DNA of 64,000 nt from Promethearchaeota archaeon (lineage in GTDB: Archaea > Asgardarchaeota > Lokiarchaeia > Sigyniarchaeales > SOKP01): assembly GCA_016839555.1 (NCBI GenBank), contig JAEOUA010000012.1, positions 192,001 to 256,000 on the forward strand, in the 5' to 3' direction. A program made the position numbers and the translations under genes. Shown here one piece after another: positions 6,040-62,147 of this stretch; positions within the stretch are counted from its first letter, which is position 1, and every line of letters begins with the position of its first letter. The notes under the pieces were generated by a model, which saw nothing but the letters and a program-made list of their open reading frames with translations, was not told the DNA's origin and searched no databases.

Positions 6040-7380
6040 ATGCCTAATAAGTTTTCAAGAGATCCGATAAAAGGTATGGATGATTTTTTCCCTTCGGATT
6101 TGCGAGTGGTTAATTATATATGCGATACATTAAGAAAAATTTCAGAATTATATTCTTATGAAGAATATGATGTCCCTTTGCTCGAACCTATCGAAATTTA
6201 TGAAGCGAAAACTTCAACGGAACTTGTGAATGAACAATCGTTTATAATTAAAAGAAAACAAGGAGAAAAGCTAATTTTAAGACCTGAAATTACACCCTCC
6301 ATGGCACGAATGATCGCTAAAAAAAATCAGGAATTAAAAAAACCAATACGCTGGTATTCTATACCGAAATGCTATAGGCGTGAAGAGCCCCAAAAAGGGA
6401 GAAGGAGGGAGTTCCTTCAATATAACGTAGATATCTTGGGAGAGGACTCACTTTATGCAGAATTAGAGATATTTAATATTATTGTGGATATATTGAGCAG
6501 TTTTGGGGCTACTTCTGATCAATTTCAGATTTACTATAATAATAGAAGATTTATTGACGCATTCTGCAATATTATTCTTGAGCTTCCAGAAGAGAAAAAC
6601 CCCCTAATATATAAGGTTTTAGATAAGTCAGATAAAATGGAGGATTCAGAATTCGAAAAATATGTGATTGATACGTTTCAAAATGAAGTTGCAATTCAAG
6701 GGATATTCAATTTAAAAGATGCCAATGATTTAGAAGAACTTCTTGAAAAATTTGATAACATCCCCGATAAATTTTATGAGAGTCGAGGTTATCAAGAATT
6801 AATACAATTAGAGGGCTTGATTGAAAAGTCTTCGTTCTCAGAATACTGTTCCTTCTCATCAGGAATTGTAAGAGGGCTGGATTATTATACGGGTACCGTT
6901 TTTGAAGTTTTTGACACTGGCAGAGAGAATATTAGGGCAATTTTTGGAGGTGGAAGGTATGATGATCTTCTTTCTATTTTTTCTGATGAACAACTGTCTG
7001 GTATAGGATTTGGAATGGGCGTGTTGATGTTAGAACTTTTCCTTCGAACCTATGATTTAATACCTCAAGAAATAAGTGAAGCAGACTATTCTGAGGTCAT
7101 TTATCTTGCTACAATCGGTGATGAGGTTGCTCCATATGTATTTAAAGTTGCGAACATAATTAGAAATGCAGGCTATTCGTGTATAATAGATTATAGATTT
7201 GACAATTTGGGTAATCAATTAAGTAAGGCAAACGATTTAGGAAATAAAATTAGTTTAATTATCGGCCCTAATGAAATGGAACAAAATAAAATCACTATCA
7301 AAAATATGATTTCGGAGGAACAAGAAACCATAGGACTTGATACACTGGTTAATATTCTTGATGATCTTTTAAAAAGTTAA
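6040..7380 (+). CDS. hisS: Histidyl-tRNA synthetase
   Basis: LRPEITP, YRREEPQKGRRREFLQ, RGLDYYTG, GGGRYD motifs. Confidence 0.97.
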   Translation: MPNKFSRDPIKGMDDFFPSDLRVVNYICDTLRKISELYSYEEYDVPLLEPIEIYEAKTSTELVNEQSFIIKRKQGEKLILRPEITPSMARMIAKKNQELKKPIRWYSIPKCYRREEPQKGRRREFLQYNVDILGEDSLYAELEIFNIIVDILSSFGATSDQFQIYYNNRRFIDAFCNIILELPEEKNPLIYKVLDKSDKMEDSEFEKYVIDTFQNEVAIQGIFNLKDANDLEELLEKFDNIPDKFYESRGYQELIQLEGLIEKSSFSEYCSFSSGIVRGLDYYTGTVFEVFDTGRENIRAIFGGGRYDDLLSIFSDEQLSGIGFGMGVLMLELFLRTYDLIPQEISEADYSEVIYLATIGDEVAPYVFKVANIIRNAGYSCIIDYRFDNLGNQLSKANDLGNKISLIIGPNEMEQNKITIKNMISEEQETIGLDTLVNILDDLLKS

Positions 7381-8978: not shown

Positions 8979-9181
8979 AGATTTTATTAAAAATTTGAAT
9001 TTGGCAAGTAAGCATTTAAAATATATCTTATTATAAACAAATAACAAATCTAAACTAATTGTTTTATTTAATTATAATAAAGATTATTTTGAATATGACA
9101 TATACAAAAATAAATATAATTAAGAACATCTTAGCAAGATAATAATATGATTAGGGTGATATAAGCAAAAAAGTGATAAAT

Positions 9182-11149
9182 ATGTCTGAAGAAAAACAGA
9201 CCAATGAAGAACCTAAGATATTTGTTGCTGTCTGTCGCTGAGGGATTAATATCTCTGAAATCATTGACTGCGGAGCACTTGCAGAATTTGCGAAAACATT
9301 GCCGAACGTTGTCGCCGCAGATGAGTATATTTCCATGTGTACAGAAGGTGGGGCGGATTTTATTAAAGAAAATATGAATAAATATAATGCAAATAGATTA
9401 ATAGTTGCGGCTTGAACTCCAATAACTCATGAACCGGTTTTCGAAAATGTTTTAAAATCAATTGATATGGATCCATCCTATTTGCAATTTGTTAATATTC
9501 GGGAACATTCTAGCTTTGTTCATAGAAATGATAGAGAGGGAGCACAAAGAGTAGCTGAAGATCAAATTAAAGCAGGAGTAGCTCGAGCGCTATTATTGGA
9601 AACCATATCTATAAAAGAAGTGGATATCCAAAAAACGGTCTTAATTATTGGTGGTGGTGTTGCCGGATTAACCGCTGGAATTGATCTAGCAGAAGAGGGA
9701 TATGATGTGCATTTAGTTGAAAAAACCCCTACCATTGGCGGAAAAATGGCACAACTTGATCGGACATTTCCTACTGATGATTGTTCAATATGAATTTTAG
9801 GACCTGTAATGCTGGAAGCAGCAAGAACAGAAGGACTCAATATTTATACATATAGCGAAATTGAAGACCTTGATGGATTCATTGGAAATTTTAACGTTAA
9901 AATCAGGAAAAAGGCGAGGTATACCACTAATGATTGCAATGGATGTGGAGCATGTGAAGAAATTTGTCCAACAATCGGTCCTAATGAGTTTGATAAAGGA
10001 ATGAGTGCTCGCACTGCTATATATACGGTTTTCAATCAAGCTGTTCCATTAGTTGCTCAAATAGATATGGATAGATGCATACGATGTGGGTTATGTGAAG
10101 AAGTATGCGAAGTCGATGCGATTGATTTCGATCAAGAAGATGAAATTATAGATTTAAAAGTAGGATCAGTTATCGTTGCAACGGGATGGGATGAATATGA
10201 GCCGCCAGAAGGATATCTCGGGTATAATAAATATCCTAATGTAATCACGCAATTACAATTGGAAAGAATATTAAATCCAAATGGTCCTACTGTGAGTCAT
10301 CTTGTACGTCCTTCTGATGGAAAAGTACCAAAGCGGATATTATTTATTCAATGTGTGGGATCACGAGACTTAAATAAAAATACATATTGTAGTTCAGGGG
10401 TATGTTGTATGACAACCATAAAGAATTCAAAACTAATCAAGCAACATGACCCTAATATAGAAATAGAGGTAGCATATATGGACATCCGAGCTGCCGGAAA
10501 GGATTATGAAGAATACTTTACCGCTTCTAGAAAACAAGGAATTAAGTATATTAGAACTAATATAAGTAAAGTTGAAGAGGATCCACAAACCCATAATCTA
10601 AAAGTAATAATGCAGAATACACTACGCGATTCTTTAGGTCTCCAAGAAAAAGAATATGATTTAATTGTCCTCTCATGTGCAATGGTTCCTCCGAAAGGCA
10701 TTGATAAGATAACGAATATGTTAAAATTAGAAACAAGTCAAGATGGTTTCTATAAAGAATTTCATTCACGATTAAATCCTATTGATACCAAAATTCCTGG
10801 AATGGTGTTAGCAGGGGCCAGTCAAGGACCGAAGTCTATTGCGGAGTCCATAGCCCAAGGAAGAGCTGCAGCCTCTTCGTTAGCACGACTCATGAGCAAG
10901 GATAAATATCAAATTAAGCTTATTCGAGCTAAAGTTGATGAAGAACGATGTTCTAATTGTGGATTATGTGAATTAAATTGCGCATATAACGCCATTACTC
11001 TTAATGAGGATGGAGCGGAAGTAAATGAAATTTTATGTAGAGGATGTGGTTCATGTCTATCTAATTGTCCTTCCGAGGCAATCACTCTAAGATATTATCG
11101 AGAACCTCAATATGAAACTCAAATAGATGCTATTTTAGAAGAGATATAG
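9182..11149 (+). CDS. hdrA: Heterodisulfide reductase subunit A (HdrA), selenoprotein with 3 Sec, 655 aa
   Basis: One frame from ATG 9182 to TAG 11149 with TGA at 9239 (VCRUG), 9413 (VAAUTP) and 9791 (DCSIUIL), all at conserved Cys positions; GGGVAG FAD motif and ferredoxin motifs. Confidence 0.93.
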
Positions 11150-11163
11150 AGGAGATAAATTAA

Positions 11164-11631
11164 ATGGAAAATGGAAATCTAAAAATAATCGCCTTCCTCT
11201 GCCTAAAATGAGGTTATGGAGCTTGTGACATGGCTGGCACCATGCGAGCACAATATCCGGCTTCCATACGCCCTATTAGAATGAATTGTACTGGTAGAGT
11301 GACTCCAAGTTTAATGATGAGAGCTTTGGGTAAAGGAGCAGATGGAATTATTTTAGCAGGTTGATATCCCGGCGAGTGTGATTTTGAAACGGGTAATCTT
11401 GTTGCCAGGAAAAATGTTAACTATGTAAGAGAAATTTTGGCAAGTATAGGGATATCGCCAAAACGAGTCCAAATGTTTTATTGTTCCGCAGCGGAAGGGA
11501 AGAGATTTCAAGAAGAAGTAACCCGAATAACGGAAGATATAGAAAAACTCGGTAAAAATCCCTTTAAGCAAACTGCAACAAATGAAAATTCAAAAGATTC
11601 TAAATCTAAAAGCAAGAAAAATGCCAAATAA
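11164..11631 (+). CDS. mvhD: MvhD/VhuD [2Fe-2S] subunit, selenoprotein with 2 Sec, 155 aa
   Basis: MENGNLKIIAFLCLKUGYGACD...MNCTGRV...GADGIILAGUYPGECDF...CSAAEG; TGA at 11209 and 11362. Confidence 0.92.
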
Positions 11632-11691
11632 GAATGACTCTTATAAGTAAATGGTTGTTATAAGATGACAATCCTTGCGTGGATATTTGGT
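11623..11691 (+). promoter_or_regulatory. Eukaryote-like SECIS element 1
   Basis: AUGAC core, 8-bp stem UCUUAUAA/UUAUAAGA, 11-nt loop containing AAA, then UGAC; directly after a Sec operon; same geometry as the element at 60527. Confidence 0.88.
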
Positions 11692-11770
11692 TAAAGTTTT
11701 AAGAATTAAGGAAAAGAATTAATATAAAATATATATATTTGAAGTATAAAAAAATAAAAAATCATATAAA

Positions 11771-13087
11771 ATGTTTTTTGGAAAATCTCCTAAAGAAAAA
11801 GCAGAAAACGATTTCAATAAAGCAGAACACCTTTTTGAAGCCCTCCAATATAAAAAAGCGGGAAAATATTATGAATCTGCGGGAGATACTTTTTATGAAA
11901 TAAAAGATTTTAGCTCTGCAGAGTTATCTTTTTTAAATGCAGCGAAGTCCTATATAAAAGAAGAACGACACATTAATGTGTTAAATTCACTAAGAAAAGC
12001 CAGTAATTGTTCTCTTCAATTGAATAATTACGCCTATTCTCAAAAAGTGTTTGAAAAGGCTCTAATATATACTAAAAAATTAAGTAAAGGGAAAGAAAAG
12101 CATAGTTTTTATATTATTTTTTCTGTTTTGTATTACTTATGCGCATTAATAAAAGGAGAACCAGAAAAAGGGGTAAATTTAATAAAAAAAATTCAAAAGA
12201 GAATTAATAAGGATTATTTTAAGGTTCATAGCTTAATCCATTTTATAACCAATTTAACGATTGCGATTAGGGATAAAAATGAATCGTATTTAGAAAAAAT
12301 AATAAATGATTTTAATGAAATAGAATTGAATCAAGTAGAGAGAGAATTAGCCCAGATTGCAATTTTATTAGTTTATATGCAAGTTTCTATATCGCCAGAG
12401 GTGGTACTAGACCAAGAGCAATGGACTATCAAAGATTTAATTGGATTACGCATTAAAGTAGATGAAACTTCCTTTAACTCAATTAAACAAAATTTGTTTT
12501 TTGAATTTCAAATTAAAGAATTTAAGATTTTAAAAGTGTCTATAGGTCATTCTGATAATCTTACAATAAAAAATAAACCTGAATTTCCATTAGATATCTC
12601 ACTTCAAAAAGGGTTTGATATGGATTTTGAATTAAAGCCTCAATTTCAAAAGGATATTTCATTCATAGGCCCTATCAAAATACAATATGAGATTAATGGC
12701 AAATATATAGGATATTTTGAAAATAGAAATGAATTTAATTTAACACTCTTATCCCCTCCCACTCATTTAGATGTCTCTATAAAAAATTTAAAACCACCAC
12801 TCATTGATAAAACTTTTCCGCTTGAAATTCTTATTGAAAATCATAGTGATAGCGAAGCACGTAATTTAGAAATTACCCTAACGCTACCGGAACCTCTCAA
12901 GTTGATGAGAGGCACTCTGGAAAAACAAATCTATTCTCTTGGAACTAATGAAAGTATTAACTGGAAAATCAGTGCAAAACCAATTGAGGCCGGAGATTTT
13001 GAAATTATTGGAGATATAAAATATAGTGACCCGGATCAAAATATTCTTAAGGAGCGAAAAATTTTTCCAATTTCAATTAAAATGTAA
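11771..13087 (+). CDS. Hypothetical protein: N-terminal TPR/SNAP-like helical repeats and C-terminal Ig-like (CARDB/DUF11-like) domains
   Basis: KAGKYYESAG and SFLNAAKSY repeats; beta-rich C-terminus (LEILIENHSDSEARNLEITLTLP). Confidence 0.55.
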   Translation: MFFGKSPKEKAENDFNKAEHLFEALQYKKAGKYYESAGDTFYEIKDFSSAELSFLNAAKSYIKEERHINVLNSLRKASNCSLQLNNYAYSQKVFEKALIYTKKLSKGKEKHSFYIIFSVLYYLCALIKGEPEKGVNLIKKIQKRINKDYFKVHSLIHFITNLTIAIRDKNESYLEKIINDFNEIELNQVERELAQIAILLVYMQVSISPEVVLDQEQWTIKDLIGLRIKVDETSFNSIKQNLFFEFQIKEFKILKVSIGHSDNLTIKNKPEFPLDISLQKGFDMDFELKPQFQKDISFIGPIKIQYEINGKYIGYFENRNEFNLTLLSPPTHLDVSIKNLKPPLIDKTFPLEILIENHSDSEARNLEITLTLPEPLKLMRGTLEKQIYSLGTNESINWKISAKPIEAGDFEIIGDIKYSDPDQNILKERKIFPISIKM

Positions 13088-37009: not shown

Positions 37010-37091
37010 GCAGATGTAGCCTAGTGGTAAGACGCTGGCCTCGAGAGCCAGTGCGTGAAAGCGCTCGAGGGTTCGAATCCCTCCATCTGCG
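37010..37091 (+). tRNA. tRNA-Ser(CGA), no intron, CCA not encoded
   Basis: Acceptor GCAGATG/CATCTGC, anticodon arm CTGGC-CTCGAGA-GCCAG, long variable arm, GTTCGAATC T-loop, G discriminator. Confidence 0.96.
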
Positions 37092-58093: not shown

Positions 58094-60094
58094 ATGTCTG
58101 ATAATCAGACCAAAGATGTTATTAGAGTAGGAGTATATATTTGTGAGTGAGGAGTGAATATAGGTGCTACTATAGATTGCGAAGCTGTGAAAGATTTTGC
58201 TGAAACTCAACCAGATGTATTTATAGCAAGAGTGAATAAATTTACATGTAGCGATCCTGGTCAAGCGATTATTAAAAATGATATCTTGGAATTACATTTA
58301 AATAGAATCGTAGTTGCTGCATGTACACCAAAGATTCATGAGTCTACTTATCGAGCAGTACTAACTGAAGCAGGATTAAGCCCATATTATTTTCAAATGG
58401 TAAATTTAAGAGAGCAATGTTCTTTTGTACATTCTAATAGGAAGGAGGAGGCAACAGAAAAAGCGAAGAATTTAGTTTTAGCGGGAATAAATCGTGCTCG
58501 AGAATTAGAATCAATTCCTAGAAAAGAGATACCCATAGAACATTCTGTTCTTATCGTAGGAGCAGGGATTGCTGGCATGAATGCTGCTTTAGATTTAGCG
58601 AACCAAGGTATTAATGTATATCTTGTTGAGAAAGAACCGACAATTGGAGGAAAAATGGCCCAGTTAGATAGAATTTTTCCAACAGATGATTGCGGTATAT
58701 GAGTATTGGCACCAATTATGGTGAATACCTCAAAACATCCGAATATTAATTTATTGACTTATAGTGAAGTAGTTGAATTTAGTGGGATTACTGGTAATTT
58801 TAATGTACGGATAAAGAAAAAACCTCGATATGTTGATGAAGAAAAATGTACTGGTTGTGGATTATGTACCACAAAATGTCCTATGAGTGTTCCTAGTGAA
58901 TTTGATCGAGGAATTGGAGAGCGCAGTGCAATATATATTCCATTTCCCCAAGCAGTTCCCAAGTTTGCGTTAATTGATAAGGAAATGTGCATTGAATGTA
59001 AAAATTGTGAGCGAACTTGTCCTGCAGAAGCGATTAATTTCGAGCAAGAAATAGAATATCTGGATGTTAAAGTTGGATCAGTGATTATTGCTACTGGCTG
59101 GGACGAATACCCCATCTGGAAAACAAATGAGTATAAATATGGCATTTATCCTGATGTGATAACCCAAATAGAACTAGAGAGAATGTTAAGCCCAATAGGC
59201 CCTACTGATGGACATATTTATAGAATATCAGATGGTAAAACACCAAATAAAATAGCAATGATTCAATGTGTGGGGTCAAGAACCTTAAGAGGGAATCGAT
59301 ATTGTTCTGCAGTGTGTTGCAATGTTGCCTTAAAAAATGCTCAGTTATTAAAACAAGAATATCCAGATATGGAAATAATAATATTTTATATTGATATCCG
59401 TAGCCCTGATAAAGGTAATGAAGAATATTACAGAAAGATTAGGGAATCTGATATTATTTTTATTAAAGGAAAACCAGGAGATATCAAATTAATTGATGAT
59501 GGAACTATGAGATTATTTTATGATAATAGCTTATTAGATGAAGTTACTCATTTAGATGTAGATTTATTAGTATTATCTACGGGAATTATTCCATCAAAAG
59601 GTACCACTGAAATGGTTAAAGTAATGGGTTTAGAAGAAGGTCCTGCTCAATTTTTATCGGAAATTCATGGGTGTTTAAAACCTCAAGAAACTAAAGATAT
59701 GGGAATATATATATGTGGGTGTGCTGCCGGACCAAAAAGTATTCCATATTCAGTTTCAACAGCTTTAGCTGCTGCGAGCAAGGCTTCAACACTTCTTTCA
59801 AAGGACACTATTTATCAGGAATTAATAATAGCCGAAGTTGATAAAAATCTATGTATGGGATGTCATCGGTGTGAAAAAAGTTGTTTTTATGATGCAATTA
59901 AAGTAGGAGAAGATGATATAGCACTCGTTGATGAACTAAAATGTAAGGGTTGTGGAGTATGCGTTACGGTTTGTCCTGCTCGAGCAATAGATTTGAAATA
60001 TTACCGAGATCATCAATTTGAAGAGGAAATAAAAGGAATTGGTGCAACAGAGATTATTGAAATAAAAAATATGGAGCCTGAAATTAAAAAATAG
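58094..60094 (+). CDS. hdrA: Heterodisulfide reductase subunit A (HdrA) paralog 2, selenoprotein with 2 Sec, 666 aa
   Basis: One frame from ATG 58094 to TAG 60094; TGA at 58148 (ICEUG) and 58700 (DCGIUVL); GAGIAG FAD motif. Confidence 0.93.
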
Positions 60095-60115: not shown

Positions 60116-60535
60116 ATGTCAATAAAAAATAATAGAAGAAACATAATAGCATTTGGTTGTGACAAATGAGGGTATTCCGTGGCTGATTTGACAGGTACTA
60201 CAAGAAAAACGTATACAACAGATTTCCGTATGATTAGAGTTAGATGTACTGGGAGGATTGGTATTCATTTAATAATGAACTGCTTTCTAAACGGTGCTGA
60301 TGGAGTTGCAATTATCTCTTGAAAGAAAGGAGAATGCGATTATGGGAATGGGAACTTAATAGCTAATGAACACGTCAAAATTCTAAAGAAAATATTTAAT
60401 CATCTGGGAATCTCAGAAGACAGAGTTCAGCAATATTTTTGTTCTGCTGCTGAAGTAGAAAATTTTTTAAATTCTATAGAAGATATTTCAAAAAAAATTC
60501 ATTCACTCCCTCCATTACCAAAAAAACCGAAATGA
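60116..60535 (+). CDS. mvhD: MvhD/VhuD paralog 2, selenoprotein with 2 Sec, 139 aa (absent from the ORF track)
   Basis: MSIKNNRRNIIAFGCDKUGYSVAD...RVRCTGRI...GADGVAIISUKKGECDY...CSAAE; TGA at 60167 and 60320; ends at TGA 60533. Confidence 0.9.
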
Positions 60536-60592
60536 ATGACTCTTTCGAAAAAATATTAGTCGAAAGATGACTTACCTTGCAAAGGTATTCGG
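60527..60592 (+). promoter_or_regulatory. Eukaryote-like SECIS element 2
   Basis: AUGAC, 8-bp stem UCUUUCGA/UCGAAAGA, 11-nt A-rich loop, UGAC; compensatory changes relative to SECIS 1. Confidence 0.88.
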
Positions 60593-60647: not shown

Positions 60648-62147
60648 ATGAATAAAAAAGTAGATATCTCTTGGAATTATCTTGAGAATGTTACAGAGGC
60701 TCTAGACTCTTATAAAATCCGAGCATTTATCGATGCTAAGGATGAAATTATTGATTGTGGGGTTTATAATGAATATCAATTTTTTGAAATTCTTTTTAAA
60801 ATGATTGATGAGGAAAAATTAAAATTTGAGTTATATAATTATTTAAAAAATAATCAAGATAATGGATTTTCAATTATTAAACAATTTTCTGAAGAAAAGA
60901 AAATTAAAATAAAAAAAGTATTAAGTTTACTTGAATTGTTAGAGATTGAAGGCTTAATTTTCTTAGAAGATATTAATAAATCCAATCAAAATGAAGATAT
61001 AAATGAAATTTTTACCAAAAATTTTGAAGATATTCTAATTAAAGTGAAAAAATCTTCTCTAAAAGAGTTAAAAACTATATATGAACCAGTAAAAGTAATT
61101 TTCAACTCAAATATTTGTGCTGGATGTGGAATTTGTGCTGGGATCTGTCCAATGGATTGTATCAATATCCAAAATGGTTATGGTGAAATAGATGAAAATA
61201 AATGTATCAGATGTGGGTTATGTTATTTTGTTTGCCCAAGATCATTTCTTCCAGCTGAAATTTTAAATATTTATCAAAACAAAACATCTAATATCAAAAA
61301 TAATAAAAATCTTGGACCATATTTAGAAGCATATGTCGCAAGGACAAAAGTTAAAGAAATAAAAGCAGCTTGCCAAGATGGGGGGGTTTCAAGTACTTGT
61401 ATCCTTTATTTATTAAATACCAATGAAATTGATGCGGCTTTAGGAGCAAAAATTGGACAAAATCCATGGTGTCCAGAACCCACAATAATCAAAAATAAAG
61501 ATGATATAATCAATTCTGCTGGAACAAAATATGTTAATAATCCAAATTTAAAATTATTAAATAAGTTCAATCTTGAAGATAAGAAAATTGCGGTAATTGG
61601 AGTACCATGTATGATGCAAGCTTTATTGAAATCTAAAATTTACAATATTAATATTCCTTCCATAAATTCTGTTAAATACCGTATAGGAATATTTTGTATG
61701 GAATCTTTTTCTTATGAACAAGGATTTTTAAAAATATGTGAGAAACTAAATGTAGATTTAAGAGATATAAAAAAAACGAATATAGATAAAGGTAAATTTT
61801 TAATTCATACAAATAATGATGATATATTAAGCATTCCAATTAAAGAAATAAATCATTTAGCCAGAGAAGATTGTGAAGTTTGTTTTGATCTTACTTCTGA
61901 ATCTGCTGATATTTCTATAGGTTCGATCGGTGCACCCTTAGGCTGGAATTCTGTATTAATAAGAACACAAAAAGGAAAAGAATTATTTGAAGCTCTGATA
62001 AACAATGATTTAATTGAATCGAAACCAATAGAAGAGGTTAAACCTGGCTTAGAACTGCTTAAAAAAACCGCCATTGGAAAGAAAAAGAATAGTTATAAAC
62101 ATATTATTAAGAAATTGGAGCAAAATAAAAAAGTACCAATATATTAA
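60648..62147 (+). CDS. Coenzyme F420 hydrogenase/dehydrogenase beta subunit (FrhB-like) with ferredoxin domain and N-terminal extension
   Basis: CAGCGICAGICP, CIRCGLCYFVCP, QDGGV, AGTKY, GVPC, GIFCMESF, ADISIGSIG. Confidence 0.9.
   Translation: MNKKVDISWNYLENVTEALDSYKIRAFIDAKDEIIDCGVYNEYQFFEILFKMIDEEKLKFELYNYLKNNQDNGFSIIKQFSEEKKIKIKKVLSLLELLEIEGLIFLEDINKSNQNEDINEIFTKNFEDILIKVKKSSLKELKTIYEPVKVIFNSNICAGCGICAGICPMDCINIQNGYGEIDENKCIRCGLCYFVCPRSFLPAEILNIYQNKTSNIKNNKNLGPYLEAYVARTKVKEIKAACQDGGVSSTCILYLLNTNEIDAALGAKIGQNPWCPEPTIIKNKDDIINSAGTKYVNNPNLKLLNKFNLEDKKIAVIGVPCMMQALLKSKIYNINIPSINSVKYRIGIFCMESFSYEQGFLKICEKLNVDLRDIKKTNIDKGKFLIHTNNDDILSIPIKEINHLAREDCEVCFDLTSESADISIGSIGAPLGWNSVLIRTQKGKELFEALINNDLIESKPIEEVKPGLELLKKTAIGKKKNSYKHIIKKLEQNKKVPIY

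Follow-up and report, generated by a model that had tools for sequence, protein, structure and literature searches.

A third helical arm in the SECIS elements that follow two archaeal hdrA-mvhD gene pairs

Eukaryotes have their closest known relatives in the Asgard archaea, whose SECIS elements have been taken as a link between the archaeal and the eukaryotic selenocysteine systems. To our knowledge, no SECIS reader is known for any archaeon. The window considered here, a stretch of 64,000 nucleotides from a Promethearchaeota archaeon, contains two such elements, each of which carries a small additional hairpin on the 3' side of its core and a basal helix that closes the whole. Whether these two helices belong to the signal or are accidents of the surrounding sequence, and what the additional hairpin might contribute, are the questions that this locus raises.

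Two hdrA-mvhD pairs and their SECIS elements

When open reading frames are read with TGA as selenocysteine (Sec), the + strand of the window encodes two hdrA-mvhD pairs:

9173..11149, + strand: hdrA copy 1, an ORF read with TGA as U, with Fer4 and FAD domains by Pfam, three UGA (Sec) codons in frame (9239, 9413, 9791), and no SECIS of its own
11164..11631, + strand: mvhD (vhuD/FlpD) copy 1, Pfam PF02662 FlpD (E = 2e-45), with in-frame UGA codons at 11209 and 11362 and the stop codon UAA at 11629-11631
58094..60094, + strand: hdrA copy 2, with in-frame UGA at 58148 and 58700 and with HdrA-type ferredoxin and FAD domains (Pfam)
60116..60535, + strand: mvhD copy 2, Pfam FlpD (E = 1.5e-37), with in-frame UGA at 60167 and 60320 and the stop codon UGA at 60533-60535, immediately 5' of the AUGA core

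The two genes of a pair lie 14 nt (copy 1) or 21 nt (copy 2) apart, and the covariance model finds two matches in the whole window, one per pair and each after mvhD. There are five UGA codons to the SECIS of copy 1, up to 2.4 kb upstream of it, and four to that of copy 2. Judging from the sequence, the RNA signal after hdrA-mvhD most likely directs the reading of these UGA codons as Sec. If the UGA stop codon of mvhD copy 2 (60533-60535) were itself read as Sec, the protein would be extended by 7 codons until UAG at 60557-60559.

Both elements are built of four parts, namely a basal helix (P1), a standard kink-turn (k-turn), an upper stem with its loop (P2), and a small hairpin (P3) that follows the 3' GA and precedes the 3' strand of P1:

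11623-11691, + strand: SECIS 1, whole element, a 69-nt RNA
11623..11629, + strand: SECIS 1, 5' strand of P1 (GCCAAAU), comprising the last two sense codons of mvhD and the first base of its stop codon
11632..11638, + strand: SECIS 1, bulged strand of the k-turn, in order G (-1b), A-A-U (L1-L3), G-A (1b, 2b) and C (3b), with AUGA at 11634-11637
11639..11665, + strand: SECIS 1, P2, an 8-bp stem (11639-11646 with 11658-11665) and an 11-nt loop (11647-11657) that begins GUAAA and has G as its last base
11666..11670, + strand: SECIS 1, non-bulged strand of the k-turn, U (3n), G-A (2n, 1n; 11667-11668), C (-1n), which forms the closing pair with G 11632, and a 1-nt linker
11671..11684, + strand: SECIS 1, the third arm P3, AUCC (11671-11674), loop UUGCGU and GGAU (11681-11684)
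11685..11691, + strand: SECIS 1, 3' strand of P1 (AUUUGGU), which adjoins P3 without a linker
60527..60592, + strand: SECIS 2, whole element, whose minimum-free-energy fold is the three-way junction
60527-60531 with 60588-60592, + strand: SECIS 2, P1, CCGAA with UUCGG
60536-60539 and 60569-60570, + strand: SECIS 2, AUGA and GA of the core
60541-60548 with 60560-60567, + strand: SECIS 2, P2, with an 11-nt loop (60549-60559) that begins AAAAA and has G as its final base
60573-60578 with 60582-60587, + strand: SECIS 2, P3, UACCUU with AAGGUA and the loop GCA

The features that the sequence-only reading had named for the two copies are all present at 11623-11691 and 60527-60592. The coordinates of both copies bear out its placing of the 5' strand of the closing helix in the last mvhD codons and of the stop codon inside the element, and the compensatory changes that it saw between the copies are real, consisting of A-U/U-A swaps in P3 and a replacement of A-U by G-C in P1. 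Its version of P3 in copy 2, UACC/GGUA, is contained in a longer stem, UACCUU/AAGGUA, with the loop GCA.

The core of this signal has been described before. Mariotti et al. 2016 (PMC4989117) described the core hairpin of lokiSECIS, reported that hdrA and vhuD share one signal, and noted that stop codons of the UGA type lie close to it; Huang et al. 2024 (PMC11227280) described an Asgard type I eSECIS-like structure, of which only the core, the upper stem and the loop were modelled, and noted UGG_CCA pairs for frhA. Both window copies share with lokiSECIS an AUGA directly 5' of the stem and a GA, for which the family also admits AA, directly 3' of it, stem strands of 9 positions (one N.N and 8 bp), an A-rich loop of 11 nt ending in G, a location at the 3' end of a selenoprotein gene with one element per hdrA-vhuD tandem, and a stop codon that overlaps or abuts AUGA. 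They are ordinary members of the lokiSECIS or Asgard type I eSECIS-like family, and their earlier description as Loki-type, eukaryote-like SECIS holds for the AUGA/GA core, the 9-nt strands and the 11-nt loop alike.

What is new is an undescribed third arm of this known family. As published, the lokiSECIS hairpin consists of an upper part, an internal loop and a stem below it, whereas the Asgard elements examined here fold as a three-way junction. The basal helix P1 corresponds to the 'lower stem' of the published eSECIS-like model, for which no conserved nucleotides were reported, and the overlap of the stop codon with the element is likewise covered by the publications of 2016 and 2024. By contrast, the P3 hairpin with its C-G pairs and G-Y loop, and the invariant closing pair of the k-turn, are absent from the published descriptions accessible to us, and the third arm does not figure in Rfam. 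The sequence-only reading had left it open whether the arm was already on record; the third arm is found in no searchable paper, whereas the basal helix and the stop-codon overlap had indeed been published. Likewise, no searchable paper joins SECIS with a three-way junction in archaea, and the literature searched contained no experimental test of any Asgard SECIS.

Like the eukaryotic elements (forms 1 and 2), the Asgard elements lie downstream of the coding region and have an AUGA...GA core resembling a k-turn, with a helix beneath it and with adenines in the loop at the apex. Unlike them, they have a shorter upper stem and find no Rfam match: the Rfam SECIS models give none at gathering score over the window and none at E <= 10 for 11560-11760. 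In eukaryotic SECIS, which is read by SBP2, a plain internal loop takes the place of the third Asgard helix. The euryarchaeal elements of Methanococcales and Methanopyrus also follow selenoprotein genes, and euryarchaeal vhuD SECIS has AUGA and GAC/AAC together with a short extra stem; euryarchaeal SECIS is defined, however, by an asymmetric GAA_A bulge flanked by a GC-rich stem of 10 bp and a GC stem of 3 bp (Mariotti 2016, PMC4989117), and both window copies lack this bulge and the GC-rich stems.

Spread and covariation of the third arm

The genome from which the window comes (3.74 Mb, 30% G+C) was scanned with a pattern that represents the published core only. The scan returned 8 elements with a loop ending in G, the variant element L004 being included, and every one of them follows immediately on a gene that contains UGA in frame, namely four hdrA-mvhD pairs, vhuU, prxL, a 157-aa ORF and a 123-aa ORF. 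Covariance model R1 added a second vhuU element, and the type II element of selD is another. All 11 SECIS elements of this genome carry P3 and P1, and all stand after selenoprotein genes (four hdrA-mvhD, two vhuU, prxL, selD and three small selenoprotein genes). In every one of them a hairpin lies 1-6 nt past GA and is followed by a strand complementary to the sequence just 5' of AUGA, while the sequences of the helices vary from gene to gene.

Relatives were gathered without reference to RNA structure, through a protein-pattern search with the four MvhD paralogues, which yielded 80 Asgard mvhD loci. A covariance-model comparison with other Asgard SECIS had been suggested in the sequence-only reading, and it finds the arm conserved: 79 of the 80 loci match a three-way-junction model that was built from 13 of the 80, and the remaining locus (L074) has the arms in variant form with different sequences, which brings the arm to 80/80. 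Models R1 and R2 miss the variants L004 and L074, which have longer linkers though both possess the arms; SECIS 2 is among the best matches to both models, at 80-84 bits. Genomes sampled from the same family (24/24 and 25/25) have 2-12 matches each, and 80 further elements from 24 related genomes, located after vhuU, prxL, mvhD paralogues and small selenoprotein genes, display many unrelated P1 sequences. Beyond the family, the arm occurs in genomes of three other Asgard families with unrelated GC-rich helices. In two families of the same phylum that are richer in G+C (f18 and f15), unconstrained folding predicts the same junction from unrelated helix sequences, and these predicted folds lend support that is independent of any alignment fitted to a model. 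Most other Asgard families gave no model match, which may reflect the absence of Sec use, a divergent signal, or loss in filtering. P3 is an integral and conserved arm of Asgard SECIS in all gene families and is not special to hdrA-mvhD.

The claim that the extra hairpin and the closing helix covary was also borne out. Over 98 distinct elements aligned to a covariance model that already contained P1 and P3, so that pair counts lean towards these two helices and, the rows being related, are counts rather than probabilities, each of the 6 modelled P1 pairs varies on either side, with pairing in 90% of cells; pairing amounts to 98% in P2, where every pair covaries, and to 79% in P3, its outer pairs covarying and its two C-G pairs being kept in 93/98 and 86/98. 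The covariation score is 0.815, against 0.05-0.19 when the partners are slid by 1-3 columns, and none of 500 shuffles reaches 0.815. A comparison confined to mvhD orthologues shows conservation rather than covariation of P1 (CCGA/UCGG) and of the P3 core. When 78 elements were aligned by MAFFT alone, RNAalifold recovered P2 only, because indels in the junction misalign P1 and P3; covariance-model alignments and an alignment-free parser were therefore used.

The third arm is constant in place and in part of its sequence. It starts 1-3 nt from GA, adjoins P1 without a linker in 76/141 elements, and has a G-Y dinucleotide in its loop in 140/141, which is GC in 83%. GYRA tetranucleotides occur in about 55% of P3 loops. 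A closed GNRA tetraloop was considered as a general rule for P3 and set aside, since the tetraloop register breaks the conserved C-G pairs and GYRA is confined to that fraction of loops. Inspection by eye revealed no conserved complementarity of the P3 loop, whether to the apical loop or to the 5' strand of the junction, that would indicate a pseudoknot.

The kink-turn core and the topology of the junction

In the core, the -1b:-1n pair joins the base two before AUGA with the base after GA and is present in 146/146 non-identical elements as G-C (138), A-U (5) or U-A (3), whereas the combinations neighbouring it pair in 10-68%. A second C-helix pair, -2b:-2n, was rejected as a fixed feature at 68% paired, about two thirds. 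The bulge is N-A-U, 3 nt long, with a purine at L1 in 125/131, and the 5' G-A faces G-A in 115 elements and A-A in 16. A standard k-turn is defined by a canonical closing pair and a 3-nt bulge followed by G.A and A.G (PMC5061560), and lies between a canonical and a non-canonical helix; at the level of sequence, the core is a standard k-turn. The 3b.3n position is variable among the elements and is C.U in both window copies. Under the 3b.3n rule for k-turn folding in metal ions, as given in PMC4382518, metal ions alone would leave about 96/131 of these k-turns unfolded, which would fit a dependence on a protein or on the junction, and the rule predicts that both window copies, with C.U, would fold.

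The branch point of the third helix is in the non-bulged strand, 1-2 bp below the k-turn, and the overall topology is that of a k-junction, the secondary structure being backed by covariation and by minimum-free-energy folds. The k-junction was described by Wang, Daldrop, Huang and Lilley 2014 (PMC4005666) for the TPP riboswitch and H. marismortui 23S rRNA. In k-junctions the third helix is coaxial with the C helix, and the k-turn has cross-strand A-minor hydrogen bonds. In roughly every second Asgard element the third helix runs into the basal helix with no linker, and a coaxial stack of this kind would then be possible. Unlike those RNAs, the Asgard elements have one or two Watson-Crick pairs between the k-turn and the branch point, and their role is that of a recoding signal rather than of a riboswitch or an rRNA. 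The likeness is best regarded as an analogy of topology rather than as membership in that class.

Alternative explanations and the possible role of the third arm

Folding energy speaks differently for the two copies. The minimum-free-energy structure of copy 2 is exactly the three-way junction, at -15.5 kcal/mol (z = -2.6 to -3.5). In copy 1 the junction comes to -12.8 kcal/mol against -14.4 for an alternative hairpin, 1.6 kcal/mol worse, and in its ensemble P1 is the only helix with a pairing probability of at least 0.75, P2 and P3 having 0.1-0.2 in a nearest-neighbour model that ignores G.A pairs. The alternative hairpin being more stable, the case for copy 1 depends on comparison with other elements rather than on energy. 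It is conceivable that P3 represents one state of a switch, with the SECIS toggling between active and inactive folds as the 5' strand of P3 and GA change partners to the apical loop and the 3' half of the P2 stem, and the minimum of copy 1 is exactly such a hairpin. Copy 2 and the GC-rich relatives nevertheless fold straight into the junction, no conserved alternative pairing was seen in the alignments, and the energy model gives no credit for G.A pairs, all of which makes a switch quite unlikely. Nor do two copies by themselves say much, since single short helices are frequent in DNA of 30% G+C: P3-like stems of at least 4 bp are found in 45-48% of controls and P1-like helices of at least 5 bp in 73%, and alignment-free tests of P3 alone or of P1 alone discriminate poorly in AT-rich DNA. 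That the hairpin and the basal helix are chance complementarity in AT-rich sequence, with function confined to the published hairpin, is scarcely credible all the same, given their fixed position, the covariation of all P1 pairs, and the conservation of the core and loop of P3 over gene families and over Asgard families of differing base composition. A joint, position-restricted P3 and P1 score of at least 17 in the alignment-free parser is attained by 74/74 non-identical elements; among shuffled flanks 9% reach it, and among native control sites 12%. The fixed joint position and the covariation over about 100-146 related elements place the structure far beyond chance.

A conserved structure might also serve something other than recoding. 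P3 and P1 could form a 3'-end element that acts in transcript stability, processing or termination and merely flanks the SECIS hairpin, an idea invited by the location of SECIS at the ends of coding regions with A/U-rich sequence next to it. P1, however, pairs across the SECIS core and encloses it, the closing pair of the k-turn joins both sides in 146/146, and P3 keeps its constant distance of 1-3 nt from GA. Further, oligo-U suffices for termination in archaea, and copy 2 is not obviously at a transcript end: an FrhB/FdhB-like gene (PF04432, PF04422; window 60648-62147) begins 55 nt past SECIS 2 on the same strand, so SECIS 2 may be internal to a longer operon and not part of a terminal 3' UTR. 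A role at the 3' end is accordingly unlikely. Still less can be said for the proposal, put forward in the sequence-only reading, that the arm helps one SECIS to act over a polycistron and is an adaptation for serving several UGA codons in two cistrons. Both window copies do stand after hdrA-mvhD, with 4-5 UGA codons over about 2.4 kb, but the same arm is found on the SECIS of single selenoprotein genes, equally on vhuU, prxL, selD, a HesB-like gene and other small selenoprotein genes with 1-2 nearby UGA codons each. The polycistron idea fails on this distribution, and we regard it as very unlikely.

The reading that we prefer, and consider probable, is that both elements are Loki-type SECIS, each the only such signal of its hdrA-mvhD pair, and that each forms a compact three-way junction of which P3 is an integral part. 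As to what the arm does, protein docking or a k-junction-like scaffold would be the best reading, and docking would fit the conserved C-G pairs and G-Y loop motif of P3. The junction may hold the k-turn in its kinked form and so pre-organise it, while P3, with its two conserved C-G pairs and a G-Y loop that is often GYRA, could combine with the k-turn into a composite surface for the archaeal SECIS reader, which might be a SelB-like factor or an adaptor standing in for SBP2. L7Ae could bind the k-turn as an L7Ae-type site, with P3 supplying the specificity that separates SECIS from other k-turns. The genome that contains the window has only two L7Ae-family genes, both small, with L7Ae at C1:149165-149437, and a SelB-like gene (C5, from 407787), and no SBP2-like gene was found in it. 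A more far-reaching version is offered tentatively, as a possibility on which we would not lean: P3 would dock an archaeal reader (SelB or an adaptor) beside L7Ae, the pre-eukaryotic ancestor of SECIS would have had the form of a k-junction, and the plain internal loop found in eukaryotes would be its remnant after recognition had passed to SBP2.

With the stop codon in the 5' strand of the junction, a terminating ribosome would have to open P1 and part of P2; with the stop and the last codons inside the junction, every terminating ribosome would have to unfold the signal, a point of relevance to the way in which a single element acts on UGA codons at a distance of 2.4 kb. P3 would lie outside the footprint of such a ribosome and could seed refolding once P1 and part of P2 had been melted. 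If the element is indeed a k-turn fused to a three-way junction with a third arm conserved in sequence, this arm belongs in the search patterns and covariance models used for Asgard selenoproteins and would offer a concrete pull-down bait for the missing reader, and the step to the eukaryotic element would amount to the loss of the arm and the gain of SBP2, which is testable.

Several observations concern the neighbours of these elements. In the window, an ORF of 438 aa directly past SECIS 1 (11771-13087) has a weak SNAP (PF14938) TPR-like match (E = 2e-6). A tRNA-Ser gene (anticodon CGA, 82 nt, window 37010-37091), which is not tRNA-Sec, is the sole RNA gene found in the window by Rfam or ARAGORN. 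Elsewhere in the genome, selD (C1:367638-368441, - strand; L196) has one in-frame UGA, and its type II SECIS has the third arm CACC/GGUG with the loop UGCGA and the basal helix UGAUG/CAUCA directly past the stop codon. In the vhuU paralogues at C9:63071-63299 (L093) and around C6 314120-314230 (L002), the stop codon is the UGA within the AUGA core and the 5' strand of P1 encodes the final residues N-V-G, so that vhuU coding sequence spans the whole 5' half of the junction. The 157-aa ORF (C7, around 6067-6601; L003) has two adjacent in-frame UGA codons (..GCUUD..) and a three-way-junction SECIS directly downstream. Among the relatives, seven loci (L102, L121, L134, L137, L144, L167 and L173) contain small zinc-ribbon-like ORFs (CxxC...CxxC) that end at the UGA of the AUGA core, each with a three-way-junction SECIS; in L173 the second motif is CPLU instead of CPVC.
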